In this document: positions 2,188-60,542 of the stretch, piece after piece
Layout of the letters: each line of letters begins with the position of its first letter
Numbering within the stretch: the stretch's first letter is position 1
From: Eledone cirrhosa
Taxonomy: Eukaryota
Length of the DNA: 64,000 bases
Reading direction: 5' to 3'
Assembly: GCA_964016885.1 (NCBI GenBank)
Contig: OZ024746.1
Span: 3,968,001-4,032,000 of the forward strand
The notes under the pieces: generated by a model
What the model was told of the DNA's origin: nothing
What the model saw: the letters and a program-made list of their open reading frames with translations, nothing else
Database searches by the model: none
Made by a program: the position numbers and the translations under genes

Positions 2188-4034
2188 TCTTAGTCTTAGT
2201 TCCTCCAGTCCCCTGTGGAACATTGGGCGACGAGCTTCCTCCACTTGATCCTGTCACTGGCGGCCCTTCTAGCACCTCTCCAGTTAATTCCCATCTCCCG
2301 CAGGTCCTCCCTGAATGTGCCCCGCCATGTTTTTCGTGGTCTTCCCCGTTCTCTCCTGCCACCTTCTGGTACCCAATTCATAGCAATATGAGCAGGTCGA
2401 TCTGCCGGCAAACGAAGGATGTGGCCCGCGAACCGCCGTCTCCTTTTCCGGACAATGTCCCTTAACCTCTCCAATCCTGACCTCCTAATCACTTCCTCGT
2501 TGCTAACTTGGTCTCTCCATGAAATTTTCAATATGGTCCGAATGCAACGACGGTGGAATACATCAAGCTTGTTACATACACTTTCCGTACTCTTCCATGT
2601 CTCACAGGCATATATCGCTGTTGGTACTACAATGGACATGTAAACACGGAGTTTGACGGCGTTGCCGATGGAACACCTGGACCACACCGGACGGAGTCGC
2701 TGGAAGACCGCCACTGCTTTTCCCAGCCTTGTGCGTACATCCACCTCAGCATCCCCATCGTCAGAGATGTTGCTGCCAAGGTATTGGAAGTGGTTTACAC
2801 ATTCAATGTTACGCTGACCAACCATGATGGGAGGATTTGGAGGGTCACCTGCCGACATGGTCTTGGTTTTGGTTTTTTCACAACTGATGCGCAGGCCAAC
2901 TTTCTCTGCATTGTCATTTAGAACGTTTGTCATCTCTTGCAGGTCTTCTCGGGAATGGCCTATCACTGCGATGTCATCGGCAAAGTCCAGGTCGCTTAAT
3001 CTCCTTCCATCCCAACTGATGCCAAAACGAGGGTCACTGATTGTCTTCTTCATGATGAAATCGATGACAATGAGGAAAAGGAAAGGCGAAAGGATGCAAC
3101 CTTGTCGAACACCCGTCAAGATGTCAAACATTTCCGTGTTTCCGTCCTTTGTCCTAACGCAGCACCTGGAATGTCGGTACAGCGACCTGAAGATGTTATT
3201 ATATTTCTCTGGGACACCGTAGAGTCTTACAATCTTCCACAATGACTCCCGATGAACACTGTCGAAATCTTTCCTGAAGTCAATGTAGTTGACAAGGGAC
3301 TTATGGAACTCCCGACATTGTTCAATGATATTCCGGAGAGTGAAGATCTGCTCTGAACAAGACCTTCCACTGCGGAAGCCAGCCTGTTCGTCTCGAAGAT
3401 GACGATCTACTTCTGCTCTCAGCCGGTTCAGGATGACTGTGCAGAATACCTTCCCTGGCACTGATAGCAACGTGATCCCTCTCCAGTTGTTGCAGTCGCT
3501 CGCTGAGACAGCCCTTCTTCGGTAGTGGTACAATCACTCCATTTCCCCAGTCTTCCGGCACCTCCTCTTCTTGCCAAATCACATTGCATAAATGGGTGAG
3601 CAGCTCCTCTATTACATCCTTGCCGTGCTTCAGAAGCTCTGCAGGAATCTCATCCAGCCCTGCCGCTTTGTTATTCTTTTGGCAGCGGGTGGCCTTGGCC
3701 ACCTCAGCTCTTGTGATGTCGTCTAGTCGTACATCCAGCCGGTAGCTCGCTTCCTCCCAGTCAAGCTCAAAGACTGTGTTGGGGGATGGCTGATTGAGGA
3801 CCTCACGAAAGTGTTCGTTCCACCTCTGGGCCTGCTCTTCACTGGCTGCAAGCATCCGACCATCTTTGCTCTTGATTGGCAAACTGCTTCCACTTCATTC
3901 TCCAGTTAACTCTCTGACGATCCGGTACAGCGTCTTGGAATCATTTCGATCTGCTGCCACTTGTGCCTCTGGAGCCCGTTCTTATAACCACTGGCGCTTG
4001 TCTTTTCGACAGCTCTTCTTTACTTCCTTGTCAG
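2188..4034 (-). mobile_element. RTE-clade LINE, 5'-truncated, disrupted (RT domain and C-terminus)
   Basis: ORFs 3322-3882 and 2196-3533 carry NWRGITLLS, EQAGFR, GVRQGCILSP, LDFADD and FQYLGS. Frameshift near 3500 and in-frame stops near 3900-3990. Short (CTAAGA)2 tail. Confidence 0.93.
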
Positions 4035-4088: not shown

Positions 4089-4125
<37 letters not shown>

Positions 4126-4256
4126 GATAAATCTACCAAGAGTTTACGGTAGTGTCCAATCCGTATGAAGAACTCAATGTATTCCGGATATCATGGGAAG
4201 AAGAGATGTAATGAAAATCCACTTTCGGTGAAAGATAAACGGTATACAGAGTCAAG

Positions 4257-5273
4257 ATAAAATATTAAACAAATAATGAACAAACAATTCCTTATATTAA
4301 ACAAAAAAAGTTCACTATTTAACGATCGTTTCTAGGGTATATATGTGTTATAATTGGTATGCATATTCAACAGATCTATGTACAAAATTATACAAAATTA
4401 TACAAATTATCAAGATTAAATATACATACCTAACACATATATACGCCGTCTTCAGAAATAATGAAGTATATTTATTGATAATAACAACAATTCAAAATAT
4501 CAGTTCAAAATTGACCAATGAAAACACAAAGGGTTAAAAGCAGTTTGGTGTGTGTATATACATGTAAAATCCTTACACATATTTTACAATAATGTGTGTA
4601 TAATTTGTATGTGCATACTAAAAAGATGGATGCAAACACAAAATTTCAAGGTTAATATCTCTGTAAGCTTAATGCGCTGATAAGATGCGCAATGATACTT
4701 ATGGAGTCAAGCATATAAATATATTTTTTTCATACTCACACATATCAGTATAATCACACATACATGCGCGTATATGCATAAATATACACATAACCACGAA
4801 CATACAAACACACACACTCCCCCACTCACATTTATATATGTGGATATAAAATCATAAGCAAATAGAAATTAAGTCACTCACATAAAACACTGGCACACAC
4901 ATTTCAAGATCAAGATACAGAAATTAGGTGGGAGGGGGGGGAAGGGTCAGTATTAGATTGTCAGAGCAGACTGCCTAATATAAATGTATCTATAAATTAA
5001 GAAAAATAAAAAAATAAAAACAATAAAATATAATAAATATAATATAATGTACATACACATACAGATATACATACATATACATATATGTACGCGCACATAG
5101 AGATATTTACGCATACACACATACACACATACGTATACAGTCATACACACACATACACTTACACAAACATACACATACACATATAAAAAGATATATATAC
5201 ACACATACACACACGCGCAACACATACACACATACACATATATATAAAAAATAGATAATAAAGATATATATCC

Positions 5274-5352
<79 letters not shown>

Positions 5353-5441
5353 TATACACATACATACCCATACATCTAAATATACATACACATACATACA
5401 CACATACATGTATATACATGTACATACATATACGCACATCG

Positions 5442-5497
<56 letters not shown>

Positions 5498-5839
5498 TCA
5501 CATAGACATAAAGATACATATACACACAACTTACATACACACGCATATATATATATATATATATATATATAGATGTACCTTCATACATAGAATTAGATAT
5601 ATAATCATACATACATATGCACCTACTTATACTCATATAAATAAATACATACGCTTCCATATATGTGTATACACATAAAAAACAATACCACCTCACCAAA
5701 CTCAGACATACAAATGAAAATAATAATAAAAAAACGCATATGTATATACATACACACACGCATTAATAGAGATATATATATATACACACGTACATACACA
5801 CACATATATATACATACACACACATATACATACACATAC

Positions 5840-5898
<59 letters not shown>

Positions 5899-5905
5899 TA
5901 GACTC

Positions 5906-5936
<31 letters not shown>

Positions 5937-6218
5937 AACATATATATCCACACACTCATACCACCATAAATACACATACAAACACCCACATGTATATATA
6001 TATATATATCCACATACACACACGTACACATATATATATATATATACACATATACACATACATATATATATATACACACACATAAAAAACAGACATGCAC
6101 ATATACATATATATATATATATTTCATTACTCTTATATATACACATAGTATATATACATACACAACCTCACTTATACACATATACACATAAGTTATATTA
6201 CAATAATAATAAAGAATA

Positions 6219-6253
<35 letters not shown>

Positions 6254-8183
6254 TATATACATATATATATATATACATACATACACATACATACATACAC
6301 ATAAATATATACATACATAAATACACACATACGAATAAAGACATATATTCACACATAGACACCTATATACATATATATATATATATATATATCTATATAT
6401 ATATATATACATATATACATATATATATATATATACACATACACACACACACACACACACAGACACACATACACACTCACATATATATATATATATATAT
6501 GTGTATGTGAGTATGCGCACACACACATATATACACACACACATACAAACACACACAAACACATACATATGCATACGTGCACACACACACACATATATCA
6601 CATAGATACGAAGATAAACATATAAATAGAGAGACATACAAATATATACACAACACATATACACATACATACATACACGCTTATACATATACATACATAT
6701 ATACACATATATATATTCCTATATACAAGCATACACATACATACACATATATACATATACATACACATATACATACCACACATTCACATACACATACATA
6801 TATAATATACATATATATATACATATATATACATACATATGTATGTACAATCATATATACACACTCAATCTTACATTCATATTTACATGCTCATATATGT
6901 ATTTTTATATTTAGAAATAAATACCAAAACCTATATAGACACCTACCTACATATACATTCATACATATACGCTTACAAATACAGATGATAATAGTATGGG
7001 GGAAAGGGGGGGTTTGGAGAAGGGGATCAAAGTAAATATATGTTTCAAGAAACATATAATATTTTCCGTATCTTAATTCAATGTATGTTCTTACATATTT
7101 TCAGTGCTAAGAAATACGAAATCTATGCATCTCAAAATAAATAAGTATACCATTAATCATATGTTAACTAAACCAAAGATAGTCAACATATTGATTTCTA
7201 AGGTGTAAATTAGTTAGGTTTATAATATTTGAAGCAGAATTATGAAGTCAAACAGTAGTAGATTATTAATTACATTATAACTAAATTAAAGTTAATAATG
7301 TTATGGTATCAATATTAGGAGATGAATTTAGTAATAGGGAAAAGAAACCCAAATAAAAATAAAATAAAGTATTACATCGGTAGTAGCATATAAATTATAT
7401 GTTAACTAAATTAAAAATTATATATTTATTTCAATAGTATACGTTAATTAGTATATGTTAATTAGGTATACAATACATAAAGCAGATATTGTATTTCATC
7501 AATAGCATAATATAAATATGCAAATAAAAATCAAAATTAATACGCATACATATACATATACATACACATACACATATACATACATATACACACATATATA
7601 TATATATATATATACATATATATACACACATATACATATATACACACATAAATATACATACAGATACACATACACAACACACACATATACATATACATAT
7701 ACATATACATATCTTTTTCAAAAAATTGCACAGAATATATTAACTAGGTATATATCCAAAACACATCCCATTCTATGATTACATGACATTCTGCAATTCG
7801 TCTGTACAAGGATACTAATTTTAAGCAAATTAAAATTAAAGTTTTAGGTTGATTAAAACTAAAACCAAATAATAAATATATTTCCAAAATGTATATTAAT
7901 TAGGTCTATAATACTAAAAATTCTTTCTCCGTCATTGGATACATGATATTATTTTGTTATATTTTATCTGTAAAAGAATTATAATAAAAAGGTTTAAATA
8001 AATTAAAATAAATTAAAATTAATCTATAAATTAAATTACTGAGTATATATTAGTAATATTTAAAGGTTTTTCAAAATTTATGATTACATAATATTTTCTC
8101 ATCTGTAATAAAATATTAATTAAATTAAATTTATAGGTTAACTAACATTTAAATTAAATTAATTTCTAGAATAATGTTATTAA
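4257..8183 (-). repeat. Left inverted arm (inverted copy of PLE 3' UTR/pLTR)
   Basis: Reverse complement of 9805-13745. ORF track shows mirror ORFs (e.g. 4343-4537+ and 13465-13659-). Differences are mainly microsatellite length plus rare substitutions. Confidence 0.97.
4311..4465 (-). ncRNA. Type I hammerhead ribozyme motif with extended stem II (inverted copy)
   Basis: Reverse complement of 13537-13691. Confidence 0.7.
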
Positions 8184-9808
8184 AAAATAGATCTAATTTA
8201 ACTTCGGATGACATTAACATTATTACACATGCTAGACAAACACTTATTGAATTTCAGAATGAATACTGGACCAGAAACACATACAGTAATCTTTTTGATA
8301 TTACTATGGGTTCAAGCGATTCCGCCCAAATTACTGATCTTGTGGGCCTCTTTCTCCTTTTCAACATAAATGCCTCTTTTCCCCACCTCAAAGGTGGTTT
8401 ATATCGTGATGACTGTCTTCTTCTTTCTAACAACCTTAGCCTTTCAGAAATCGAAAAAAACAAAAAGCATATTAGAACTTTCCTTAAAGACTATTATAAT
8501 CTTAATATTACTTTTGAAAAAACAAGTAAAGTAGTAAATTTCCTAGATATAACTTTAGATTTAGCTACGGGTATATACCAACCTTACCATAAACCTAACC
8601 AAAACTTACATTACATACACTCACAATCTAATCACCCTAAATCTATCCTTAAAAACCTTGCATATAATATATCACTTAGAATTTCTAACCTTTCTTCTAA
8701 CCAAGATGTATTTGATAAAAATGCGACCTTTTATAATGAAGCTCTAGATAGAAGTGGCCACAAAAATAGATTAGAGTATATACCTTCTACTAAAAATACT
8801 GAAAGTATACAGCATAATATTACCAACAAACACCAAATGAAAAGTACACACCTAAATGCCACCCACAATATACCCCAAAATACTAAATCTTCTAATATAA
8901 AGTATAGTAACCCTCAAAAAACTACTCATCATACAACTATAATAAATATTAATAATAAAACTCCTAATAAAAAAGATAAAACACCTAAATCTACAAATAT
9001 AACTAAAAATAGTTGTGGTGAGATCATTAACATTAATCCTCCTAGTAAAAATCATGATACAACATATAAAAATAATAAAAATAATAAACAACATAGAAAC
9101 CGTAATAGACGAGTTACTTGGTATAATGCTCCTTTTAATTTACAAGTTAAGGATAATATTGCTAAAAAATTTTTTTATATCCTTGAGAAAAACTTCCCGC
9201 CAAACCACAAATACCATCAAATCTTAAATAGGTCTACAGTTAAATTCTCATACTCTACAACAAATAACATAAAACAAAATATAAGTGCATATAATGCATA
9301 TAAATGTAAGAAAACCATAAGTATACCACCAGTACATCAAATTAACAATAATATCTCCTCAAATACAGAATTAACGAAAGGATGTAACTGTAGAAACAAA
9401 ACAAACTGCCCATTAAAAGGGAATTGTCTTGTTAACAACATAGTCTATAAATGTAATGTTAAAACTAAAGATTCTATTTGCTCATATATAGGAGCTACCT
9501 CTAACAATTTTAAGACAAGATATAATACCCACAAACATAGCTTTAAAAATGCCGCACTGGCTAATACAACATCTCTAGCAGAAAAAATCAATAGTTATAA
9601 AAATAAAAATATAAAGTATGATTTGACCTGGAGTGTGCTCAAAAGAGCCACCCCTTATCAAAATAATAGAAAGGAATGTAGATTATGTTCCCAAGAACTA
9701 TTTGAAATAATGAAGTCTAAGGATATCTTATTAAATAAACGACAGGAATTAATTATATCGTGTAATCATAAACTAAAAAAAACATTTAAATATTATAAAC
9801 CTAATTAA
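8174..9808 (+). CDS. PLE (Naiad-like) reverse transcriptase C-half plus GIY-YIG endonuclease, 5'-truncated, 544 aa uninterrupted
   Basis: FDITMGSSDSAQITDLVGL, GLYRDD, VNFLDITL, YHKPN..YIH..SNHP, WYNAPF, CNCR..CPLKGNCL, IVY..YIG, FKTRY..H, CRLC..E, LLNKR..CNH. N-terminal RT motifs are absent and the ATG is supplied by the inverted arm. Confidence 0.9.
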   Translation: MLLKNRSNLTSDDINIITHARQTLIEFQNEYWTRNTYSNLFDITMGSSDSAQITDLVGLFLLFNINASFPHLKGGLYRDDCLLLSNNLSLSEIEKNKKHIRTFLKDYYNLNITFEKTSKVVNFLDITLDLATGIYQPYHKPNQNLHYIHSQSNHPKSILKNLAYNISLRISNLSSNQDVFDKNATFYNEALDRSGHKNRLEYIPSTKNTESIQHNITNKHQMKSTHLNATHNIPQNTKSSNIKYSNPQKTTHHTTIININNKTPNKKDKTPKSTNITKNSCGEIININPPSKNHDTTYKNNKNNKQHRNRNRRVTWYNAPFNLQVKDNIAKKFFYILEKNFPPNHKYHQILNRSTVKFSYSTTNNIKQNISAYNAYKCKKTISIPPVHQINNNISSNTELTKGCNCRNKTNCPLKGNCLVNNIVYKCNVKTKDSICSYIGATSNNFKTRYNTHKHSFKNAALANTTSLAEKINSYKNKNIKYDLTWSVLKRATPYQNNRKECRLCSQELFEIMKSKDILLNKRQELIISCNHKLKKTFKYYKPN

Positions 9809-11738
9809 TAACATTATTCTAGAAATTAATTTAATTTAAATGTTAGTTAACCTATAAATTTAATTTAATTAATATTTTATTACAGATGAGAAAATATTAT
9901 GTAATCATAAATTTTGAAAAACCTTTAAATATTACTAATATATACTCAGTAATTTAATTTATAGATTAATTTTAATTTATTTTAATTTATTTAAACCTTT
10001 TTATTATAATTCTTTTACAGATAAAATATAACAAAATAATATCATGTATCCAATGACGGAGAAAGAATTTTTAGTATTATAGACCTAATTAATATACATT
10101 TTGGAAATATATTTATTATTTGGTTTTAGTTTTAATCAACCTAAAACTTTAATTTTAATTTGCTTAAAATTAGTATCCTTGTACAGACGAATTGCAGAAT
10201 GTCATGTAATCATAGAATGGGATGTGTTTTGGATATATACCTAGTTAATATATTCTGTGCAATTTTTTGAAAAAGATATGTATATGTATATGTATATGTA
10301 TATGTGTGTGTTGTGTATGTGTATCTGTATGTATATTTATGTGTGTATATATGTATATGTGTGTATATATATGTATATATATATATATATATATGTGTGT
10401 ATATGTATGTATATGTGTATGTGTATGTATATGTATATGTATGCGTATTAATTTTGATTTTTATTTGCATATTTATATTATGCTATTGATGAAATACAAT
10501 ATCTGCTTTATGTATTGTATACCTAATTAACATATACTAATTAACGTATACTATTGAAATAAATATATAATTTTTAATTTAGTTAACATATAATTTATAT
10601 GCTACTACCGATGTAATACTTTATTTTATTTTTATTTGGGTTTCTTTTCCCTATTACTAAATTCATCTCCTAATATTGATACCATAACATTATTAACTTT
10701 AATTTAGTTATAATGTAATTAATAATCTACTACTGTTTGACTTCATAATTCTGCTTCAAATATTATAAACCTAACTAATTTACACCTTAGAAATCAATAT
10801 GTTGACTATCTTTGGTTTAGTTAACATATGATTAATGGTATACTTATTTATTTTGAGATGCATAGATTTCGTATTTCTTAGCACTGAAAATATGTAAGAA
10901 CATACATTGAATTAAGATACGGAAAATATTATATGTTTCTTGAAACATATATTTACTTTGATCCCCTTCTCCAAACCCCCCCTTTCCCCCATACTATTAT
11001 CATCTGTATTTGTAAGCGTATATGTATGAATGTATATGTAGGTAGGTGTCTATATAGGTTTTGGTATTTATTTCTAAATATAAAAATACATATATGAGCA
11101 TGTAAATATGAATGTAAGATTGAGTGTGTATATATGATTATACATACATATGTATGTATATATATGTATATATATATGTATATTATATATGTATGTGTAT
11201 GTGAATGTGTGGTATGTATATGTGTATGTATATGTATATATGTGTATGTATGTGTATGCTTGTATATAGGAATATATATATGTGTATATATGTATGTATA
11301 TGTATAAGCGTGTATGTATGTATGTGTATATGTGTTGTGTATATATTTGTATGTCTCTCTATTTATATGTTTATCTTCGTATCTATGTGATATATGTGTG
11401 TGTGTGTGCACGTATGCATATGTATGTGTTTGTGTGTGTTTGTATGTGTGTGTGTATATATGTGTGTGTGCGCATACTCACATACACATATATATATATA
11501 TATATATGTGAGTGTGTATGTGTGTCTGTGTGTGTGTGTGTGTGTGTATGTGTATATATATATATATATGTATATATGTATATATATATATATAGATATA
11601 TATATATATATATATATGTATATAGGTGTCTATGTGTGAATATATGTCTTTATTCGTATGTGTGTATTTATGTATGTATATATTTATGTGTATGTATGTA
11701 TGTGTATGTATGTATGTATATATATATATATGTATATA

Positions 11739-11773
<35 letters not shown>

Positions 11774-12055
11774 TATTCTTTATTATTATTGTAATATAAC
11801 TTATGTGTATATGTGTATAAGTGAGGTTGTGTATGTATATATACTATGTGTATATATAAGAGTAATGAAATATATATATATATATGTATATGTGCATGTC
11901 TGTTTTTTATGTGTGTGTATATATATATATGTATGTGTATATGTGTATATATATATATATATGTGTACGTGTGTGTATGTGGATATATATATATATATAC
12001 ATGTGGGTGTTTGTATGTGTATTTATGGTGGTATGAGTGTGTGGATATATATGTT

Positions 12056-12086
<31 letters not shown>

Positions 12087-12093
12087 GAGTCTA

Positions 12094-12158
<65 letters not shown>

Positions 12159-12500
12159 GTATGTGTATGTATATGTGTGTGTATGTATATATATGTGTGT
12201 GTATGTACGTGTGTATATATATATATCTCTATTAATGCGTGTGTGTATGTATATACATATGCGTTTTTTTATTATTATTTTCATTTGTATGTCTGAGTTT
12301 GGTGAGGTGGTATTGTTTTTTATGTGTATACACATATATGGAAGCGTATGTATTTATTTATATGAGTATAAGTAGGTGCATATGTATGTATGATTATATA
12401 TCTAATTCTATGTATGAAGGTACATCTATATATATATATATATATATATATATGCGTGTGTATGTAAGTTGTGTGTATATGTATCTTTATGTCTATGTGA

Positions 12501-12560
<60 letters not shown>

Positions 12561-12649
12561 CGATGTGCGTATATGTATGTACATGTATATACATGTATGT
12601 GTGTATGTATGTGTATGTATATTTAGATGTATGGGTATGTATGTGTATA

Positions 12650-12728
<79 letters not shown>

Positions 12729-13736
12729 GGATATATATCTTTATTATCTATTTTTTATATATATGTGTATGTGTGTATGTGTTGCGCGTGTGTGTATGTG
12801 TGTATATATATCTTTTTATATGTGTATGTGTATGTTTGTGTAAGTGTATGTGTGTGTATGACTGTATACGTATGTGTGTATGTGTGTATGCGTAAATATC
12901 TCTATGTGCGCGTACATATATGTATATGTATGTATATCTGTATGTGTATGTACATTATATTATATTTATTATATTTTATTGTTTTTATTTTTTTATTTTT
13001 CTTAATTTATAGATACATTTATATTAGGCAGTCTGCTCTGACAATCTAATACTGACCCTTCCCCCCCCTCCCACCTAATTTCTGTATCTTGATCTTGAAA
13101 TGTGTGTGCCAGTGTTTTATGTGAGTGACTTAATTTCTATTTGCTTATGATTTTATATCCACATATATAAATGTGAGTGGGGGAGTGTGTGTGTTTGTAT
13201 GTTCGTGGTTATGTGTATATTTATGCATATACGCGCATGTATGTGTGATTATACTGATATGTGTGAGTATGAAAAAAATATATTTATATGCTTGACTCCA
13301 TAAGTATCATTGCGCATCTTATCAGCGCATTAAGCTTACAGAGATATTAACCTTGAAATTTTGTGTTTGCATCCATCTTTTTAGTATGCACATACAAATT
13401 ATACACACATTATTGTAAAATATGTGTAAGGATTTTACATGTATATACACACACCAAACTGCTTTTAACCCTTTGTGTTTTCATTGGTCAATTTTGAACT
13501 GATATTTTGAATTGTTGTTATTATCAATAAATATACTTCATTATTTCTGAAGACGGCGTATATATGTGTTAGGTATGTATATTTAATCTTGATAATTTGT
13601 ATAATTTTGTATAATTTTGTACATAGATCTGTTGAATATGCATACCAATTATAACACATATATACCCTAGAAACGATCGTTAAATAGTGAACTTTTTTTG
13701 TTTAATATAAGGAATTGTTTGTTCATTATTTGTTTA

Positions 13737-13745
<9 letters not shown>
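9805..13745 (+). repeat. Right arm (PLE 3' UTR/pLTR, microsatellite-rich)
   Basis: Starts at the ORF stop codon and ends at TTTTAT|(AT)n. Confidence 0.97.
13537..13691 (+). ncRNA. Type I hammerhead ribozyme motif with about 115-nt stem II
   Basis: 10-bp stem I TTCATTATTT/AAATAGTGAA, CTGAAGA core, long hairpin GTATATATGTGTTA/TAACACATATATAC, then GAAAC-GATC-GTT (palindromic stem III, GUU site). Confidence 0.72.
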
Positions 13746-13767
<22 letters not shown>

Positions 13768-19239: not shown

Positions 19240-20578
19240 GTAAGCTCCCTAACAGTGTCAAAAGAGGATACATCACGAACGAGATCGCGCGAATCAAAAA
19301 CAGATGCAGCGATCCCGCGAGTGGTGTCACTCATACCAAGCGATTCCTCGAGGTGCTGGAGACGAACGGATATCCACCTCGCTCACAGACAGAGTAGGAG
19401 ACACCAGACACAAGAGACAGAGAGGCACCCAAGGCAAGTGCTTCCTTAAAATGCCACACCTGGGCGAGAAAACCACCAACGCTATCCGCAAGGCTATACG
19501 GAGGGAGGGCCTCGTCATCCACCTGGCCCACTCGGGCCCCTCCCTGCGAAGATGCCTCTCCAGGAAATCAACTGACGCGTGCTCCCTCAGAGACTGCCCG
19601 ATACGCCATGCGAACTGTTGCCTGCGCACATACGTCGTGTATAAGATAGAATGTGACAGGTGCAACGAATACTATATAGGTAGCACAATCCGACCTTTGC
19701 ACATCCGGATCAAGGAACATACTAAAACCAGGGCCTCGTCTTTCCGGAAACACATAGACAAATGCGGAAACAAAGACGGAAGGCCCATTGTCGCAATTCT
19801 AGCGACTGAAAGAAACGTCTGCACGTTACGTATTAAGGAAGCGCTTTTTATCAAACGCCTGGAACCGCAAATAAACAATAGATCCGAGAGAAGCGAAATG
19901 AGGTGGCTGGTTTAAGTTAACAAACGATACAGCCACACACGCACACACACACAAACGAGACAACTACTCACGCACACGCACACACACACACACAGTAGCA
20001 TTCCACCATACGAACATACTACACTGCCAATACAGAGGAACAAGGCAACAACACACGCACACACACACACACTCAAGCGAGACAACAACACACGCACACA
20101 CACACACAGTAACATTTAACAAACAGGCAGAGAATGGACTGACAGCTAGCGCCACCCCACTCCCACATTCGGCCGCTGACCTCCGCCCGACCGACCCCAT
20201 TTCACGCGCACGCGCGTTCTGCTGAATACCTCAGATATTCAAAACAACAAACAGCGGAGGACGCGTTTCGCACCTTTCCTACAGACAACCTTTCCCCCAC
20301 CCCGGAAAAAACCCCCAGTTGATGGATGTGAATCCGAAATATATAGGGACAATTAAATCTCTCCCAAGGTAACTCTCTCTCGTGTTGTTATTTTTATTTT
20401 ATCCTTTATACTCTTTCCTTCATTCCTCTACACGCTACAGTCTTCTACACGCCACGCATCTCAACGTTCACCCACTTACATCTCTCTCGCCACCACCGGA
20501 TCTTGTTACCCGGAGATTTACCTTAAAGATATTTACCTATTATTCCACAATGCTTCAAGCAAACTTCAATACTCTCTT
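19240..20578 (+). mobile_element. Penelope-like element remnant (thumb, linker and GIY-YIG, ORF 19304-19915) with 3' UTR ending in (TA)n
   Basis: C..CP..C, VVYKIECDRC..YIGSTIRPLHIRIKEH, LRIKEALFI..P.IN. Frameshifted upstream. HHR-like motif at 20313-20349. Confidence 0.88.
20313..20349 (+). ncRNA. Degenerate hammerhead motif in PLE 3' UTR
   Basis: CCC-CAGTTGAT-GGATgtgaATCC-GAAA-TATATA-GGG. Homologous to 31342-31378(-). Confidence 0.5.
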
Positions 20579-20593: not shown

Positions 20594-20650
20594 GCCCAGA
20601 ATTAGCCGTCGAAACGGCTTGAGCTCAGCCGTCGGGGTCCTACTCGTTCC

Positions 20651-20652
<2 letters not shown>
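20594..20652 (+). mobile_element. Single short arm of palindromic HHR mini-element family X
   Basis: Matches the right arm of 22358-22545 and is flanked by (TA)n. Confidence 0.8.
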
Positions 20653-20939: not shown

Positions 20940-21226
20940 GGAAAACGAAGAATCACAAGTTCCTCAGATACGTCTAGTGACTTCGAAGCAAATCCTCTGT
21001 CTGACAGACGTATCTGAAGAACTTGCGAATCCAGAGACACGTTCGATCCACAAATAGATCGCACCTCGAGCTGTTCGCCGGGGAAACAACTGTAATACGC
21101 TAATAAATTGTGTTCCGATGCATCACTGATTCTTCGTTTTCCATATTATTATATTCTGCTCAGAAGGAGCATAGAGTTCTCAACTGGATACCGCCTATGG
21201 ACGCATCCAAGCAACCTTACTACAAA
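20933..21226 (+). mobile_element. (TA)n-flanked HHR mini-element with partial inverted arm
   Basis: ATAATATGGAAAACGAAGAATCA inverted at 21127-21149, second inverted piece 20955-20974/21006-21025, one-sided tail. Confidence 0.7.
21009..21099 (+). ncRNA. Type I hammerhead motif with about 62-nt stem II region
   Basis: CGTAT-CTGAAGA-(62 nt)-GAAAC-AACT-GTA-ATACG. Homologues at 61935-62025(+) and 62198-62288(-). Confidence 0.72.
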
Positions 21227-22357: not shown

Positions 22358-22359
<2 letters not shown>

Positions 22360-22545
22360 CGAAGGAAATGTGGTAAGGAACCAGATGGACCATAACGCAG
22401 CAAAGAACTCAATACTTAGGGTAGTAGAGTGGGTAATAGGAACGAGTAGGACCCGACGGCTGAGCTCAAACCGTTTCGACGGCTAATTCCAGAATTAGCC
22501 GTCGAAACGGCTTGAGCTCAGCCGTCGGGGTCCTACTCGTTCCTA
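22358..22545. mobile_element. Asymmetric palindromic HHR mini-element, family X
   Basis: About 55-bp inverted arms centred near 22490, about 75-bp extra tail on the left, (TA)n on both sides. Confidence 0.85.
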
Positions 22546-22912
22546 TATATATATATATATATATATATTTAAAAAAAATAGAGGTGTGACACACGAGTTG
22601 TGATATATTAGTAAAAAGGAAAAGAAAATGGTGATAAATTTTTCCCAGTGAAAAATAGTTTAATTAGGAATAAGTATAAATTAGTAATAAGTATTGGTTA
22701 GTATTCAGTTTTAGTTTTAAGTTTTTACCGGTTGCGCATTTCTTATGCTTTTCAAAAATAATTTTGTGATAGAGTGCTCTTGATTTTTGCTCTAATCTGA
22801 TCAGTTTTAGAAATTCTTCCTGTTTTATGTGAAAAAAGTGGCTTGGGAGGCATTAAGATTACATTGAGTTTTTCATACGGCTTGGACCCTACCATTAATT
22901 GGTGGATTTATC

Positions 22913-22952
<40 letters not shown>

Positions 22953-25883: not shown

Positions 25884-28067
25884 TTTATCTCTTTCTCTCA
25901 ATTTCGAGTATATTTTTGACCGGCCACCTTCCTGGTGGCAAGGTTGTAAAAGAAAAGAAATTGTCATCCCTTGAATCGCAAGAATGTTTTGCAAATTTTG
26001 AAGGTGCCAGCTATCGCAGCCATTTGTAGACTATGAATTAGGGAGCTGCGCTTTTTGTCCGCAAATCCAAGTTCAGTCATACTTTGGTCCAAGCGGGTTG
26101 GTATATAACCCGTAGCTCCTATAATGATGGGTATGAAGCTTTAGGTGTATCTTGGATACTGGATTTGTAAACTCCTCATCAATGGTCCGTAGATGTCCTC
26201 CTTCTCCTGTATTTTTCTGACAACATTTACATCAAGTGGGCAGCTGATCTCCACAACAGAACACGTTTTCAATGTGTGGTCCCAAACAACAATATCAGGC
26301 CGGTTGTGCTTTAATTTGGTGGCAGTTTTTATTTTCAGGTTCCACCAGTATTCCTTAGTGCCATCTGTCTCAATATATTCTTCCTCGTTTGTTGTTGATT
26401 TTGTTTTCCGAAGTGCGTTCCAGATGGTTCTAGCTATCCCATCGTGTCTCATGGGGAGGTAGTAGCGAGATGACATTCTTTCGCAGCTGGCAACAATGTG
26501 GCTTACATCCTCGATCTTTGTTTTACATAGCCTACATTTATTGTCAGCTGCTGGCCCTCCTCTTTTGTGCAGCAGATATTTGGTAGGGAGTTCTTGTTCC
26601 TGTATTGCATAGAGATATCCCTCAAGGTGTGATGTCATAAACTTGTCGGAACTCCATGCCAGGCTTTTTGAGCGGTTTATCCCCTCTATGGTCTGTGTTT
26701 TACGCCTCAAGTATCCATGCACAACTTTTTCTGTAAATTGGTCAATTTTTTTTTCTTGTTTGAACATTGAATAGGATCTTCCGATTTCTCTGGGTGAGAG
26801 ATTTATATCGGGCTTTATTCCATATCTCTCCTCCAGATCAGTCGCTATTCTAATGATATTTCTTTTTTCATGGTCATAAACCTGGGCAAGATGGTTGCCA
26901 ACCTTTTTCCTCTGTTGAAGGTGTTGCTTCAGTGTCACTATCCGGGTCTCATATGTTGTTAATATTGATTTTAGACCCCGGCCACCTTCCTTGCGTGAGA
27001 AGTATAGCCGATCCACATCACCATTGATGTTAAAGTTCCCAGTAACACTGAGAGGTTTTCGAGTTCTAACATCCATCTCACTTAGTTCTTGCAATGACCA
27101 GTTCAGTAGGCCAAATGTTGGCGTTAGAATTGGCACAGCATAAGTATTGTGGGCAATGTATTTGTTGTATGCTGACAGTTCTGATGACCATATTTTCTTT
27201 ACTCTTCTGAGGTATTCAGTTCTGGTTCTCTCCTTATTTATGGGTCCATCATATCTGACATTCTCATCCTGTCCAAGATATCTGTAGTTGTCACCTGACT
27301 GCAGAGGTTGTATTGTCAGGCCGTTCATCTCTAGATTTCTAGAGGAGGGCACAGCTCTTCCACGTTTTACTGCCAAATATGCACACTTGGACTCACCAAA
27401 TTTCATTTTGATGTCGGTTGAAAATTGTGTAATGAGGTCCAATTGTTTCTTGATGTCATTGATATTTGGCCCATACAACTTCAGGTCATCAACAAAGAAA
27501 AGATGGGAGATACTTCTGGTCCCACTTCTTTGTCAACCTTGTTTCCTGAGTAGGTAAGATAGTGGATTCAGTGAGAGAACGAAGAGTAGCACTGACAAGC
27601 TATCACCCTGAAAGATGCCCTTCTGGTAATGTATCTTATCAGTCTTAACCTGCTCCTTCTCACCTCTAAGGATCAAACTGGTGTACCAGTTCTTGGTCAG
27701 GCGTTCAACAGCAGCTACCAATGGTTGTGGGACTTTAGCTAACTGTAAAGCCTTAACAATCCACCCATGAGGTACACTATCAAATGCTTTTTGATAGTCC
27801 AGCCACACGACAGTCATGTTTCTGCGATTCTTTGTTGTTTTTTCCTGAATCATTTTGTTAGTTAGTAGGTGATCTATGCAACCCCACACCTCCCTCTTTC
27901 CACCAGCTTGCTCAGGTGTTATGATGTTGTTGGTAGCACAGTGATCCTGTAAGAACAGGTTAAGGCACCCAGTATATAATTTATACATGATGTTTTGGCA
28001 GGCAATTGGGCGGTAATTTTTAGCAAGGGTGGTTTGGCTATTTTTGGGAATGAGGAGAGTAGAGGCA
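25884..28067 (-). mobile_element. R4/Dong-clade non-LTR retrotransposon (RT, CCHC knuckle, restriction-like endonuclease), 5'-truncated and disrupted
   Basis: NYRPIAC, WLDYQKAFDSVPH, IFQGDSLS, LFFVDDLKLY, EGGRGL, CRLC..HIVASC, RHD, RPDIVV..EISCP. Frameshift near 27530, premature TAA at 26141, homology continues to a TGA near 25964. Confidence 0.9.
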
Positions 28068-28484
28068 GTATGTATATGTGTGCCTGTATGTATGTATGTA
28101 TATGTGTGCCTGTATGTATGTATGTATGTATGTATATGTGTGCCTGTATGTATGTATGTATATGTGTGCCTGTATGTATGTATGCATGTATGTATGTATG
28201 TATGTATGTATGTATGTATATGTGTGCCTGTATGTATGTATGTATATGTGTGCCTGTATGTATGTATGTATATGTGTGCCTGTATGTATGTATGTATGTA
28301 TATGTGTGCCTGTATGTATGTATGTATATGTGTGCCTGTATGTATGTATGTATATGTGTGCCTGTATGTATGTATATGTGTGCCTGTATGTATGTATGTA
28401 TATGTGTGCCTGTATGTATGTATATGTGTGCCTGTATGTATGTATGTATATGTGTGCCTGTATGTATGTATGTATATGTGTGCC

Positions 28485-28515
<31 letters not shown>

Positions 28516-29035
28516 GTATGTATGTATGTATATGTGTGCCTGTATGTATGTATGTATGTATATGTGTGCCTGTATGTATGTATGTATGTATGTATGTATG
28601 TATGTATGTATGTATGTATGTATGTATATGTGTGCCTGTATGTATGTATGTATATGTGTGCCTGTATGTATGTATGTATGTATATGTGTGCCTGTATGTA
28701 TGTATGTATGTATGTATATGTGTGCCTGTATGTATGTATGTATGTATGTATGTATGTATATGTGTGCCTGTATGTATGTATGTATATGTGTGCCTGTATG
28801 TATGTATGTATGTATATGTGTGCCTGTATGTATGTATGTATGTATGTATGTATGTATATGTGTGCCTGTATGTATGCATGTATATGTGTGCCTGTATGTA
28901 TGTATGTATATGTGTGCCTGTATGTATGTATGTATGTATGTATGTATGTATATGTGTGCCTGTATGTATGTATGTAAATGTGTGCCTGTATGTATGTATG
29001 TATATGTGTGCCTGTATGTATGTATATGTATACAT
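28068..29035. repeat. Compound (TATG)n satellite with TGTGCCTG interruptions
   Basis: Direct reading. Same unit as 24675-25025. Confidence 0.92.
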
Positions 29036-29573
29036 ATATTCCTCTTTGATCCAATTAAAATGCAAGTCATGACTCAACAAATGTGGTCATCATGTATCGA
29101 TGGGTATCTTCAATCTACTTGTTAAAATCTAATCCGTCTTCTATTACTCTAAGATACCCACTTTCTTCTAATTCAGAATCGATTATTCATTACTGCTAGC
29201 CACGATTACGTATTTATATTCGAAATATTGTATTTTTCGTTTTGTTTTCCTTATTTCATTGTTCTTTGTGGGTGTTTTTATTATCTAGCAGGCATGGCCA
29301 TTAATTTCGCTCAATATGTCCGTCATTTTCTCACATACACTGTGATATTTATTCGACCAAGTTATCCCATATGAACTATATATTTCTATGGTCATATTAG
29401 AAATTAGATTTCCTTCTCGACATATATGTTTTTCACGTTTACTTCCTTTATCTTCACATATTTTTTTTCCTCCGCACATATTTTTGAAGTGGTAGTAGTG
29501 GTGATGTTGATAGGTGGTATTTCTTATTTCTTACAAATAGATTTCCCTAATGCATATATGTCTGTAGATATGA

Positions 29574-31232: not shown

Positions 31233-32448
31233 GTTTGAATTTGTAAAGCCAAACAATGCAGGTATGGACATAGAATATAAAAAATGCAAATGCAAAAGAT
31301 ATTGTTGACAATTAGTCTTTTACCTTAGATTTATTTAAATGTCCTTAATTTTCGAGATAATATCTCTTCTTCGGAGGGAAGTAAAGCGGTTAAACCAGTG
31401 TTCAAAATAGCTTGCCGGGTCATGCTGACAGGAAATGGTATAGAGTATCTGTTCTATCTCTAATATCAAAGAGTTAAGGTTAGGTAGATAAAGAGGGTTT
31501 TTTTTTGTACATGTCTGTTTAAGTGTGTGGGAGAATGCGTGAATATGTAAGTATGTGTGTGTGTGTGTGAGTGTGAGAAGATATGTCTATACGTAAAGGT
31601 GGGGGATAGATGTTCTCTCGTGTTAGAACTGGTCTTTGTATGTGTGTGTGTGAGAGAGAATAAGTGGATGTGTAAGCGTGTGTGTGCGTGCGTGTGTGTG
31701 TGTGCGTGTGTGTGGGGTGTAAGTATGGGGCTAGATGCTCTATCAAGTTATAAATTGGGTGTTTAGTTCTAGTCTATTATTGATTAGTGGTTGTGTTTTG
31801 TCTATAATTAGTGCTTCCTTAATTCTAAGATTGCCGAGGTTTCTTTCCTTAGTTTCTATCCTAACTGTTTTGTCGGTGTTTTTGCATTTCACTAGGTATT
31901 TCTTAAATGAGGAAGCGTTAGTATTGAGGTGTTCTTTTATTCTTATGTGGAGTGATCAGGTGGTGCTACCTACGTAGAAGTTGCTGCATTTGTCGCACTC
32001 TAGTCTGTATACGACGTAAGCCTGGTGGTAAATGTCTGTGTCATTGATGAGGAAGTTGGCTAGCCTGCAGCGGTTGTCATGTCTGGTGGAGTGTCTTTTC
32101 GTTAGCTGTCCGCGTAGAGAAGGTCCTGAGTGGGCCAGTTGGATATCTAGTCCCTCTCGTCTGATAGCTCTGCGGATGGCTGTTGTTGTTTCGTCACTGA
32201 AGTGTGGGAGCTTCAGGAAGCAAGTGTTAGTGCCTCGGGTGTGGTGTCCTCTGTTCTTTCTGGCACGGTTTGTGGTGGATGTCGTGTATCCGTTCAGTTT
32301 GAGTACTTCCAGGAAATGTGTGGTGTGTGTGTCTCGGTCTCTAGCGTCGGTGCATTTGTTCCGGATACGTGTTAATTCGTTCCTTATGTATCCGAACTTA
32401 GCGCCGGCTGGGAGGGCCGATCTGAAATGTACGAACAAATAACTTCCT

Positions 32449-32450
<2 letters not shown>
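31230..32450 (-). mobile_element. Penelope-like element remnant related to 19240-20578
   Basis: GYIRNELTRIRNKC, CFLKLPHF, AIRREGL..AHSGPSLR, VVYRLECDKC..YVGSTT*, LRIKEALII..P.INN. (TA)n on both sides. HHR-like CCGAAGA..GAGAT att ATCTC GAAA at 31342-31378. Confidence 0.88.
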
Positions 32451-32493
<43 letters not shown>

Positions 32494-32495
<2 letters not shown>

Positions 32496-32698
32496 CGAAG
32501 GAGGTGTGGTAAGGAACCAGGTGGACCCAAACACACCAGAGTACTCGATACTTTTGGTAGTAGAGTGGGAAATAGGAAAAGAGTCAAGACCCCGACGGCA
32601 GAGCTCAAGCCGTTTCGACGGCTATTTCTGGACTCAGTCCAGAAATAGCCGTCGAAACGGCTTGAGCTCTGCCGTCGGGGTGTTGACTCTTTTCCTAT
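32494..32698. mobile_element. Asymmetric palindromic HHR mini-element, family X
   Basis: About 63-bp inverted arms centred near 32636 plus left tail. Confidence 0.85.
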
Positions 32699-45880: not shown

Positions 45881-45882
<2 letters not shown>

Positions 45883-46052
45883 ATCCAGGGTAACCACAGT
45901 AAGTAAGGTACTCAATATGTTAGTAGATTGTAGACAAATTTAATATAGAAGTGGCTTCTACAGGAGTAGAACTGTTTCATTCAAAGGAGTTCATCAGGTC
46001 TTCCTGATGATTCCTTTGAATGAAACAGTTCTACTCCTGTAGAAGCCATTTC
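45881..46052. mobile_element. Asymmetric palindromic HHR mini-element, family Y
   Basis: Arms 45948-45998/46003-46052 meeting at CATCAGG-TCTT-CCTGATGA. Tail shared with 51809-51870. Confidence 0.82.
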
Positions 46053-51377: not shown

Positions 51378-51680
51378 CTAGCAAAGTTTGGACATATAAT
51401 TAACTTCCTATTCAACTGAACAATCATATAGATACATGGATATTAATGTTGTCATCAACCGTTTCGTATTTACAGAGTGGAATGGATGTGAAAGAGATTA
51501 CAAGAGAATAGTATAATAATTAAAGAGGCACAGAGTGGAATACATGCGACAGAGATTACAAGGGAATAGTATAATAATTAAAGAGGCATTAAGGTAGAAA
51601 GTTACTCATAAAACGAGGACACTAGCAGTACATATGCAAGCGTATAGAGAGTGAAAATGCGTTATATATATATATATATA

Positions 51681-51867
51681 TATTTAATATAGAAAAGCTT
51701 CTACAGGACTAGAACTGTTTCATTCGTGAGAAATCATCAGTCAGCTTTCTGATGATTTCTCACGAATGAAACAGTTCTAGTCCTGTAGAAGGTTTTCTAT
51801 ATTAAATATTTATACTCTGCTTTGTATTGAGTACTTTACTTACTGTGGTTACCCCCGATTGAACCCA

Positions 51868-51870
<3 letters not shown>
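51681..51870. mobile_element. Asymmetric palindromic HHR mini-element, family Y
   Basis: 60-bp arms 51681-51740/51749-51808 meeting at TCATCAG..CTGATGA, right tail, (TA)n on both sides. Confidence 0.85.
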
Positions 51871-51913: not shown

Positions 51914-51915
<2 letters not shown>

Positions 51916-52123
51916 CGAAGGAAATGTGGTAAAGAACCAGATGGACCATAACGCACCAAAGTACTCAATACTTAGGGTAGTAGAGTGGGTAATAGGAACG
52001 AGTAGGACCCCGACGGCTGAGCTCAAGCCGTTTCGACGGCTAATTCTGGACTCAGAATTTTGGAGTCCAGAATTAGCCGTCGAAACGGCTTGAGCTCAGC
52101 CGTCGGGGTCCTACTCGTTCCTA
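51914..52123. mobile_element. Asymmetric palindromic HHR mini-element, family X
   Basis: About 64-bp arms around a short AGAATTTTG loop, left tail, (TA)n on both sides. Confidence 0.85.
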
Positions 52124-52136
52124 TATATATATATAG

Positions 52137-57900: not shown

Positions 57901-58167
57901 TATAAAGAAAAAGAGATGAAATCGAAAATGCAACTGGAGTCTTATTTAAAAAATAATATATATTTATTTGGTTCCTTTACCGGTTTCGCAGTTCTTCTGC
58001 TTTTGAAAAGCAGAAGAACTGCGAAACCGGTAAAGGAACCAAATAAATATATATATATTTAAAAAAAATAAGACTCCAGTTGCATTTTCGATTTCATCTC
58101 TTTTTCTTTATACTTTCACTCGTGTAGGACACCTCGGTTATTTTTTATTTTGTAAAAAAAACCTCAC

Positions 58168-60312: not shown

Positions 60313-60315
<3 letters not shown>

Positions 60316-60521: not shown

Positions 60522-60542
60522 TATCTATCTATATATATATAT

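Follow-up and report, generated by a model that had tools for sequence, protein, structure and literature searches.

Penelope-like elements (PLEs) that are inserted head to head into (TA)n and carry a tail on one side belong to the published anatomy of this group, for which an inverted 5'-truncated copy and a tail have been described (Craig et al., 2021; PMC8557442). According to the same source, the Hydra clade is defined by a C-terminal GIY-YIG endonuclease and the motifs CxCX5C, CxxC, CxH, and RWK/DKT, and one of the elements listed, Penelope-13_HM, has a 5'-truncated inverted copy (nt 1–966) at its 5' end; how PLEs choose two end points and build tandem and inverted structures is stated there as open. 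In vitro, the lizard PLE PAc (Poseidon clade, Anolis carolinensis) cuts and extends both target strands from two internal start sites, one on either side of the tail, requires RNA located 3' of these sites, and is a predicted dimer (Frangieh et al., 2024; PMC11167929); head-to-head products are not addressed in the text examined of that work. The rotifer elements Pen1–Pen4 of Adineta vaga combine inverted terminal repeats of 181–218 bp and a one-sided tail with asparagine-rich ORF inserts and long, copy-specific spacers of 0.9–1.5 kb between the ORF and the 3' repeat (Arkhipova et al., 2013; PMC3846280).

The locus described here, which is part of a 64-kb window (the whole stretch of DNA analyzed), is a large specimen of this published insertion design in a little-studied clade. 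It resembles the Hydra elements, especially Penelope-13_HM and Hydra-1_Obim, in the C-terminal GIY-YIG endonuclease without CCHH, the CxCX5C linker, CxxC and CxH around the catalytic E and N, a (predicted) 3'-end hammerhead, and the (TA)n target. The Hydra consensus sequences are listed with 1080–3045 bp, whereas the truncated copy found here has 5.56 kb, its tail of 134 nt exceeds the 30–40 bp given for PLEs, and an insert of about 100 residues rich in N, K, and T behind the thumb distinguishes it from the listed Hydra elements (PMC8557442). The preliminary description had called the locus an unusually large version of a known design; its size is indeed unusual, but the architecture itself is ordinary for PLEs. 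The model proposed below shares with PAc the cutting and extension of both strands, the AT-rich targets, the two start sites bracketing the tail, the RNA requirement, and the dimer. [quoted passage not shown] The ends at this locus, by contrast, map to the 5' UTR region, at TA-like stretches just before a conserved hairpin. The palindromes at the inverted junctions of Pen1–Pen4 (PMC3846280) are absent here.

Structure of the Locus

Alignment of the reverse complement of the left arm with the right arm (Table 1) yielded 3926 matches, one mismatch, and three indels, so that the arms are 99.97% alike over 3.9 kb and chance is therefore excluded as the source of the match. The indels (4, 6, and 4 nt) are all located within microsatellites and make the right arm 14 nt longer; the sole SNP (6848/11140) could be an RT or a polishing error. 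Near-identity of arms could also stem from gene conversion or assembly smoothing. The arms are separated by a spacer of 1621 nt (8184–9804). The inverted arms and the (TA)n adjoining both outer ends agree with the preliminary description, which had also noted arm differences in microsatellite length, as found, and rare SNPs, of which there is only one. Its 'CTIIY/CIIIY' ORF track, in turn, is a spurious microsatellite frame (6511–7035, plus strand; 10953–11477, minus strand).

The locus has the two features of EN+ PLE insertion units, namely an inverted copy with 5' truncation at its 5' end and a one-sided tail. The tail, earlier given as about 130 bp, comprises 134 nt and starts at 4123 instead of 4126. 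It has no ORF-like translation and its fold energy is not unusual (z −0.67). Over the final 60 nt it is 83% identical to a second (TA)n-bounded relative in the window (22857–22913). Given this match and the tail position in relatives, the tail likely represents the beginning of the 5' UTR that belonged to the following tandem unit of the donor RNA.

At the inner junction, the ORF and the left arm overlap by 1 nt at 8183, and no palindrome or homology of more than 1 nt was found. A 6-bp palindrome centered on the inner arm end was rejected as a signal, as 4.7% of nearby positions have one likewise. None of the 32 contig pieces listed (2046 more are unlisted) bridges 8183/8184; however, rare variants are lost from contigs, and the X1 run has sites at which none of its contigs shows the letter of this copy, so that this result counts neither for nor against the junction. 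The inverted copy ends 1 nt before the stop codon, for which the mechanism proposed below gives no reason.

Table 1. Features of the locus and related insertions in the window.
Feature	Position	Strand	Evidence
(TA)n left flank, target microsatellite	4092–4122	.	sequence
134-nt tail, only at end of inverted copy	4123–4256	−	arm alignment
Long-loop version of bulged hairpin (RCUC / UU / GAGU, 71-nt inner part)	4172–4252	−	pattern match; fold energy no better than shuffles
Left arm: 5'-truncated copy in inverted orientation, spans entire 3' region beginning 1 nt ahead of stop codon	4257–8183	−	arm alignment
Mirror copy of hammerhead-shaped motif	4311–4465	−	motif scan
5'-truncated Hydra-type ORF, C-terminal 541 aa, 1-nt left-arm overlap at 8183	8183–9808	+	ORF list, protein alignment, family contigs
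Stop-codon 13-mer, three further repeats with ≤1 mismatch (10080, 10518, 10766)	9796–10778	+	repeat search
Right arm: sense 3' region, TG/TA-microsatellite-rich, ends at TTTTAT joined to (TA)n	9805–13745	+	arm alignment; proximal part joined to ORF end in contigs of four runs
Type I hammerhead-shaped motif, predicted	13537–13691	+	core, stems, fold
(TA)n right flank, then (CA)n	13746–13767	.	sequence
Mini head-to-head insertion	22359–22546	n/a	alignment, hairpin
Mini head-to-head insertion	32495–32698	n/a	alignment, hairpin
Mini head-to-head insertion	51676–51868	n/a	identified by eye
Mini head-to-head insertion	51915–52124	n/a	alignment, hairpin
Mini head-to-head insertion	60315–60522	n/a	alignment, hairpin

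Coding Sequence and Affiliation

The stop-free frame between the arms extends from 8153 to 9808 (551 aa), but has no start of its own and takes its first 30 nt from the left arm. Its 541-aa element part contains RT motifs 4(B) and YRDD (aa 42–77), the thumb, the N/K/T-rich insert (aa about 200–305), the CxCX5C linker (aa 401–409), the GIY-YIG domain with VYKC at 421 and YIG at 435, CxxC at 499, and CxH at 527; the GIY-YIG domain is thus C-terminal to the RT. Homologs were numerous (102 proteins with E ≤ 0.001 among 7607 candidates; best E-value 1.6e-123), and the cysteines of CxCX5C as well as C499–C502, E505, N518, and C527–H529 are invariant in their alignment. The CxxC between VY and YIG that forms part of the CCHH motif is absent from the ORF protein and from 19 aligned relatives. 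RWK/DKT motifs, which in Hydra elements are N-terminal and go along with the lack of an insertion-in-fingers domain, were seen in full-length relatives, the corresponding region having been lost from the truncated copy. The C-terminal GIY-YIG, the CxCX5C linker, CxxC/CxH flanking the conserved E and N, and the lack of CCHH identify the element, by protein motifs and with the likeness to the published Hydra sequences judged by eye, as a member of the Hydra clade and not of Naiad; the predicted 3'-end hammerhead motif and the (TA)n insertion are further Hydra features. The shortness typical of, but not defining, Hydra elements (<3 kb) was not found, as the copy has 5.56 kb despite its truncation. 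The label 'Naiad-like' was thus rejected: Naiads share the (TA)n preference, the inverted 5'-truncated copy, and the one-sided tail, but have an N-terminal endonuclease with CCHH and no canonical hammerhead (PMC8557442), and the element is the opposite in each of these three respects.

No Pfam family matched the ORF, and a search of the sequences of solved structures with the homolog alignment gave no match at E ≤ 1. The predicted structure is a low-confidence model (mean pLDDT 63.9, pTM 0.33), with which Foldseek retrieved nothing at E ≤ 0.001 and only weak retroviral RT matches, and it was given no weight in the interpretation.

Contigs from four of four public runs have loose ends before 8183 that continue in frame and resemble the helix preceding motif 4(B) in relatives; the ORF is therefore 5'-truncated at 8183. 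As this point lies downstream of motif 3(A), the enclosed frame is open, as described earlier, but not intact, lacking its start codon and about the first 280–320 residues of full-length relatives, including motif 3(A). Judged from its sequence, this copy cannot encode an active RT. Sixteen ORF sites are private to it (among 40 differences listed of 201), and 11 of them are synonymous and five nonsynonymous, compared with a synonymous-site fraction of 0.196 (p = 2.7e-5, for 40 of 201 rows and without a transition-bias term). On these counts the private differences represent lineage divergence under selection, not decay in place.

The 3' Region and a Hammerhead-Shaped Motif

In contigs of all four runs, position 9804 is joined to 8183, 8144, or 7831 on the opposite strand, which corresponds to a transition from the ORF end into the arm. 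The arm is therefore the 3' region of the family. The distance between the stop codon and the hammerhead-shaped motif is 3739 nt, as compared to 62–305 nt in 36 relatives.

The predicted motif consists of CUGAAGA at 13547, a stem II region of 116 nt, GAAA at 13670, a palindromic stem III, and a 10-bp stem I. Its fold is far better than expected (z = −5.99; none of 200 shuffles as good), and only one of 200 arm shuffles contained any such motif, none of them with stems this long. In relatives the stem II region measures 10–30 nt, although the scan of these loci allowed at most about 50 nt. No hammerhead family was among the 150 of 193 Rfam matches listed, which held only microsatellite-driven miRNA matches below the gathering score. 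The motif may thus be regarded as a variant hammerhead with a stem II far longer than listed ones, for which self-cleavage is predicted at most.

A Conserved Hairpin at the End Points

The long/short head-to-head design recurs five times in miniature within the window. In four of these insertions, which are about 200 bp long and all pivot at one self-complementary stem, the short end lies 5 nt before a hairpin and the long end 46–48 nt after it (22359, 32495, 51915, and 60315). The corresponding values at the giant locus are 4 and 49 nt: the long-loop hairpin begins 4 nt past the stop point of the right, shorter arm and ends 49 nt before the left (TA)n. The ends at this locus show TA-like microhomology.

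In Hydra-like elements, this covarying bulged hairpin (RCUC..UYGAGY) usually occurs twice between the hammerhead and the ORF. The pattern was devised after viewing the same loci and its instances are related to each other, a restriction that applies to all following counts. It matched 76 times in 44 of 79 related loci, with 74 matches on the sense strand, and five times in the window (0.18 expected; none of 100 shuffles). Among 35 5' UTRs of at least 150 nt, 23 contained two hairpins, six one, and six none. The first upper pair is formed in all 61 distinct instances (CG 37, UA 21, GC 2, UG 1; shuffle mean 44.4), and the upper three pairs are formed in 140 of 174 cases versus 25–43% when the pattern is slid. 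Single hairpins did not fold better than shuffles in five of five cases (z −0.31 to −1.15), and neither did the one at this locus (z −0.68).

The 3' ends were counted at 85% identity with a complexity filter. Of 71 hammerhead-core matches, 49 had no close reference, 11 run into the next ORF, and two are at a contig end, leaving nine informative ones. Eight of these end 1–4 nt upstream of a hairpin, four at each of the two hairpins, and the remaining one (L017) is off by 27 nt. The 3'-end signals of seven loci (L027, L035, L045, L055, L061, L063, and L071) were discarded as artifacts of query length, low complexity, or distant references. These data suggest that a small conserved hairpin likely tells the copying enzyme where to start. 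Hairpin 2 of the family of this element, and with it the position of the long end before hairpin 2, is a prediction. A wider proposal, to which we give slightly less than an even chance, is that two bulged RNA hairpins, not described so far, lie between the hammerhead and the start codon of Hydra PLEs and would serve as one docking site per half of an RT-endonuclease dimer, each fixing the cDNA start 1–5 nt upstream at a TA-like stretch that pairs with nicked (TA)n.

Origin of the Locus

The arm identity, clade motifs, truncation point, continuity of ORF and arm in the family, hammerhead-shaped motif, and fixed hairpin offsets of the ends are direct observations. They are probably best explained by two 5'-truncated, near-identical Hydra-clade PLE copies joined head to head in (TA)n, most likely recently, with two cDNAs likely started from opposite target strands at two sites likely set by the conserved hairpin. 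The preliminary description had likewise proposed a PLE with a (TA)n target, a pair of truncated copies with long and short 3' ends, and two cDNAs from opposite strands, which fits the lizard PLE in vitro (PMC11167929), and its young age is supported as probable; the hammerhead-shaped motif, the miniature insertions, and the end-point hairpin were not part of it. A donor copy elsewhere would have been transcribed through its 3' region and hammerhead into the 5' UTR of the next unit, where two hairpins would be expected. These hairpins would be bound by a complex of RT and endonuclease, probably dimeric, which would nick both (TA)n strands, whose ends could anneal to the TA-like stretch 1–5 nt upstream of a hairpin and prime synthesis. 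A start before hairpin 1 would yield the short end (13745) and one before hairpin 2 the long end (4123), and the tail would therefore equal the inter-hairpin spacing. One cDNA would have reached 5.56 kb into the RT gene and the other 4.06 kb to the stop codon; joining of the two 3' ends over a 1-nt overlap, followed by fill-in, would have completed the insertion. The length of the arms would reflect an expansion of the 3' region of the family to about 3.9 kb through local duplications and growing microsatellites.

This last point depends on the distal arm being family-wide 3' UTR. Alternatively, this copy or its subfamily alone could have acquired host DNA at this place, ahead of the terminal repeat. 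Rotifer Pen1_Av is a precedent, with copies that carry 0.9–1.5 kb of unique host-derived spacer (PMC3846280), and the arm does resemble the surrounding microsatellite-rich DNA, with alternating runs making up 40% of it (1582/3941 nt). However, the proximal 464 nt, the only part compared with other copies, are common to runs of three organisms with all bins covered, the repeats keep a single TG-rich polarity (G 19%, C 4% over 11121–12940), and repeat-rich 3' regions also occur in two other PLE fragments of the window. Moreover, a 13-mer at the stop codon recurs up to 10778 (none of 1000 shuffles), and its repeats likely reflect local duplications by which the 3' region grew. Capture thus has perhaps one chance in four. 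An older origin, namely a single insertion that was later duplicated in inverted form by DNA repair or whose arms were kept uniform by gene conversion, would account for a copy that differs from the commonest letters of the runs at many sites yet has arms 99.97% alike, and for two private letters common to both arms (8041/9947 and 8074/9914); but the mostly synonymous ORF differences and a frame open over 541 codons speak against it, and duplication of the right arm at the DNA level cannot supply the 134-nt tail, making this the least probable explanation.

The tail also bears on fold-back. Simple fold-back of one target-primed cDNA was rejected: it is the shorter copy that bears the tail, which thus cannot have been copied from the longer, tail-less one. 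In an extended form, self-priming on one template (antisense RNA or free cDNA) would give a hairpin intermediate trimmed by the endonuclease at two sites, the conserved hairpin being a recognition site for DNA cutting and not for RT docking. Self-priming was proposed earlier for head-to-head PLEs (PMC3846280), and resolution by the endonuclease was put forward to explain the tail (PMC8557442). Work cited in PMC11167929 found that recognition by the D. virilis endonuclease depended on the tail. GCTC..GAGC could be inverted DNA half sites, and the shared pivot stem of the four miniatures points in the same direction. We nevertheless consider it unlikely, since it requires the template arm to be trimmed in an additional step afterwards, the inner junction offers no palindrome or homology beyond 1 nt, and an inner length of 6 to 71 nt, a one-sided bulge, and covarying pairs are more readily reconciled with a folded single strand than with half sites in duplex DNA. 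An assembly artifact, caused by a fold-back read or by wrongly joining near-identical copies from two separate places, is a concern given that PLE tandem and inverted structures are known to trouble assemblies (PMC8557442), that the family is abundant (1685 X1-run contigs on 2.1 kb, a depth that is not a copy number), and that all arm differences but one fall in microsatellites, as read errors do. Yet the inversion stops exactly at the element ends with unrelated outer flanks, the left end has 134 nt that are absent at the right and match a second element end in the window, the inner junction has no overlap to drive a mis-join, and the same asymmetry is seen in five small insertions, so that this explanation appears very improbable. 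Two cDNAs from opposite strands thus remain the preferred reading.

Implications

The locus indicates a Hydra family whose 3' region exceeds the usual length more than tenfold, and a complex that can copy 4–5.6 kb twice in one event, giving a near-perfect inverted repeat of 3.9 kb. Such a repeat would be a source of fragility and, if transcribed through, of 3.9-kb double-stranded RNA; inverted Penelope copies gave siRNAs in Drosophila (PMC3681739). If the twin-hairpin proposal is true, a single rule would account for the preference for microsatellites as well as for the tail and the head-to-head insertions. Any RNA ending in the two hairpins, even 4–5.6 kb long and laden with microsatellites, could then be copied into both strands simultaneously, yielding a giant inverted repeat. 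Ends 1–5 nt upstream of a hairpin would provide a sharp rule testable in vitro and a boundary rule for curating PLEs. Neither the twin hairpin nor multi-kb Hydra arms were found in the literature searched, although earlier mention in print is possible in subscription papers, figures, and some supplements beyond reach. Not mentioned in the text examined of PMC8557442, the twin hairpin is visible by eye in the published consensus sequences of Hydra-1_Ajap, Hydra-2_Ajap, and Hydra-2_Amil.

The Inverted Insertion

The inverted arms of the large head-to-head Penelope-like (PLE) element, already claimed in the preliminary description, match at 3,926 of 3,927 aligned bases (reverse complement of 4257–8183 versus 9805–13745) and are separated by a spacer of 1,621 nt. 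A single substitution (6848/11140) was found where rare SNPs had been described, and the reported microsatellite-length differences were recovered as three indels of 4, 6, and 4 nt, all within microsatellites. As noted earlier, both outer ends adjoin (TA)n: the left tract borders an extra tail whose length had been put at about 130 bp, and the right arm runs with its TTTTAT (13745) directly into the repeat. The near identity of the arms (divergence 1/3927 = 2.5e-4; upper 95% bound 1.4e-3) is as expected if one donor gave rise to both in a single recent event, and the insertion is probably young, as had been suggested. An inverted 5′-truncated copy with a one-sided tail is given as standard PLE anatomy in the available text of PMC8557442 and PMC3846280, and for Penelope-13_HM of the Hydra clade an inverted copy of 966 nt is on record (PMC8557442); the head-to-head design of the large element is ordinary. 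The locus looks real: a non-autonomous insertion of the Hydra clade, probably young, whose design is known and whose size is unusual.

Features of the large element and related insertions (window positions)
Feature	Position	Strand	Remarks
Extra left end (tail)	4123–4256		134 nt, borders (TA)n at 4092–4122
Long-loop hairpin in tail	4252–4172
Open frame	8153–9808		Stop-free ORF
Four minis, one family	22359–22546, 32495–32698, 51915–52124, 60315–60522		200 bp, head-to-head, in (TA)n
Solo arm, four-mini family	20595–20652
Third mini family	51676–51868, 45882–46052		Head-to-head, short Hydra-type hammerhead layout
Diverged end of the large element's kind	22571–22916	+	About 350 nt, between (TA)n tracts

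Open Reading Frame and Clade Affiliation

A Pfam search with the ORF gave zero matches; 102 relatives of 295–806 amino acids were obtained from 7,607 candidates, and Octopus sinensis has a homolog at 44%, which together with the microsatellite load is compatible with an octopus host. Judged by motif layout (C-terminal GIY-YIG without CCHH, CxCX5C linker, CxxC, and CxH), the ORF bears the marks of the Hydra clade, nearly all members of which insert in (TA)n (PMC8557442). Since these marks are present and Naiads have their endonuclease in front (PMC8557442), the former label “Naiad-like” is wrong.

The ORF was wholly or partly present in 15 of 19 listed sequencing runs, with at least half of its words in six. 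The stretch 7720–9804, which includes only 464 nt of arm, was compared with contigs of four public runs (X1, X5, X3, and X6, from three organisms and two studies). Contigs of every one of these runs depart before 8183 and continue in frame with letters like the relatives' helix ahead of motif 4(B). The family ORF therefore extends upstream, and what had appeared to be an enclosed stop-free ORF is a copy cut at 8183, where it overlaps the inverted arm by 1 nt. Each run also has a contig linking 9804 to opposite-strand arm sequence; this joint is an ordinary ORF-to-3′-region join, which makes the arm part of the element. Among the 40 differences listed of 201, the copy has 16 private ORF sites, 11 synonymous and 5 not (expected synonymous share 0.196, p = 2.7e-5 for 11/16 in a model leaving out transition bias), and its distance from the runs is therefore that of a living lineage.

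Hammerhead Motif and 3′ Region

The fold of 13525–13700 forms a three-way junction (z = −5.99), and in a pattern scan a hammerhead layout of type I was placed at 13547 (stem I 10 bp, stem II region 116 nt), with its mirror at 4455 and three weaker layouts elsewhere in the window; when the arm was shuffled, a layout of any sort arose in 1 of 200 trials. No hammerhead was among the Rfam matches listed (150 of 193). The Hydra table of PMC8557442 shows this palindromic stem III as well, and the cleavage site there is often a U. At 21009–21100 (+), directly after a (TA)n tract, lies a second hammerhead layout whose stem II region is also long (62 nt); its end is akin to 62144–62232.

The ORF end could be mapped in 69 of 79 related metagenome loci (from the best 80 of 416), and a hammerhead follows it in 36. 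In these the stop-to-hammerhead distance is 62–305 nt versus 3,739 nt in the large element, and the stem II region is 10–30 nt in a scan limited to about 50 nt. Published Hydra consensi measure 1,080–3,045 bp (PMC8557442), and the unusual size asserted earlier holds; the arms owe their length to that of the 3′ region. The stop-codon 13-mer has three further copies in 9809–11120 with at most one mismatch (0/1,000 shuffles; in the same kind of test 1/70 control 13-mers had any match), and alternating runs make up 40% of the arm, which suggests growth by duplication and slippage. Possibly the distal part of the arm is instead captured host DNA, in the manner of rotifer Pen1, where such capture is known (PMC3846280). 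Recently active Penelope-like insertions of Octopus vulgaris average 5.4 kb (1,829,278 bp/336; PMC13282606, Table 1), and great length may thus be common among PLEs of octopus-like hosts. The inverted copy ends 1 nt before the stop codon (9802–9808), at the first of the four 13-mer copies.

Twin Hairpins and Element Ends

The relatives share a bulged hairpin 3′ of the hammerhead (RCUC-stem-loop-stem-UY-GAGY, then mostly ACU). A strict pattern, derived from the same loci in which it was counted, gave 76 matches in 44 of the 79 loci, all but two of them (74) in sense orientation, counts that are inflated by the relatedness of the loci. Two hairpins are present, near −128 and −65, in 23 of 35 5′ UTRs (at least 150 nt ahead of the N-terminal SxKNI motif); of the others, six carry one and six none. 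Sequence anchors alone were used to pick 61 related instances, and in every one of these the first upper pair was formed (CG 37, UA 21, GC 2, UG 1; shuffled mean 44.4), the second and third in 44 and 42 (shuffled 25.5 and 23.9), and pairing at the fourth was not significant; slid partners pair at 25–43% versus 80% in register. Relatedness raises these pairing figures too. The folding energy of five single hairpins from the window was no better than that of shuffles.

The 3′ end was mappable for 9 of 71 hammerhead-core matches, and eight of these ends precede a hairpin by 1–4 nt, divided evenly between the first and the second hairpin (four each), the related locus L017 being the single exception. 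The short hairpin pattern occurs five times in the window (0.18 expected), each inside the tail of a mini, a head-to-head insertion of about 200 bp. The short arm of the large element stops 4 nt before the tail hairpin and the long end 49 nt after it; these distances are 5 and 46–48 nt in the four minis and about 4 and 37 nt in the third mini family. The four minis, which belong to another family than the large element, share a pivot (a self-complementary stem before GAAAC), and one arm of each bears a 75–77 nt tail that contains the hairpin. They and one insertion of the third family repeat the design of the large element: two head-to-head arms, a tail on one of them, and (TA)n or a like repeat outside. 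By eye, the Hydra-1_Ajap consensus starts at the first hairpin, contains the second, and ends short, and for Hydra-2_Ajap and Hydra-2_Amil the consensus stops some 30 nt past a hairpin (PMC8557442). A description of the motif was not found in the available text of PMC8557442 or the literature searched, which is weak evidence of novelty. The twin-hairpin rule opens the origin of the tail to direct testing.

The final 60 nt of the fragment at 22571–22916 are 83% like the large element's tail, and by sequence it is the 3′ end of a diverged relative. A 211-bp near-perfect palindrome adjoining (TA)n (57901–58112), related to 60538–60642, is probably another fold-back PLE end. The related locus L028 has an inverted 188-bp copy of its own 3′ end upstream of the ORF (2512–2694 vs 4545–4732, 90% identity).

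Proposed Mechanism

A lizard PLE protein, a predicted dimer, acts on AT-rich DNA by cutting both strands and extending them, and its element has two internal RNA start sites bracketing the tail, with RNA 3′ of them needed (PMC11167929). Together with the anatomy of the large element, this makes two target-primed cDNAs from opposite (TA)n strands, as proposed earlier, the likeliest origin. The first would start ahead of hairpin 1 and run 5.56 kb, the second ahead of hairpin 2 and run 4.06 kb; hairpin binding and dimer action would accompany them, and we infer that end-to-end joining followed. Fold-back of a tailed copy on the longer copy is ruled out because the tail sits on the shorter one. 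A free hairpin intermediate trimmed by an endonuclease is possible, as is an assembly error that created the inverted pair, on which the contigs are uninformative either way, no listed piece crossing the inverted junction.

Other Repeats

GIY-YIG fragments with CxxC within the core, the canonical PLE type, lie at 19253–19915 (+; Pfam GIY-YIG 4.9e-05) and 31956–32621 (−), and both have a CA-rich 3′ region behind them. The window also contains two decayed frames of non-LTR RTs (Pfam RVT_1 6e-30; zf-RVT), at 2196–3894 (−) and 26141–29086 (−), the latter broken by a long TACA-type repeat, and a SINE-like repeat of 150–190 bp occurs at about ten places in the window.
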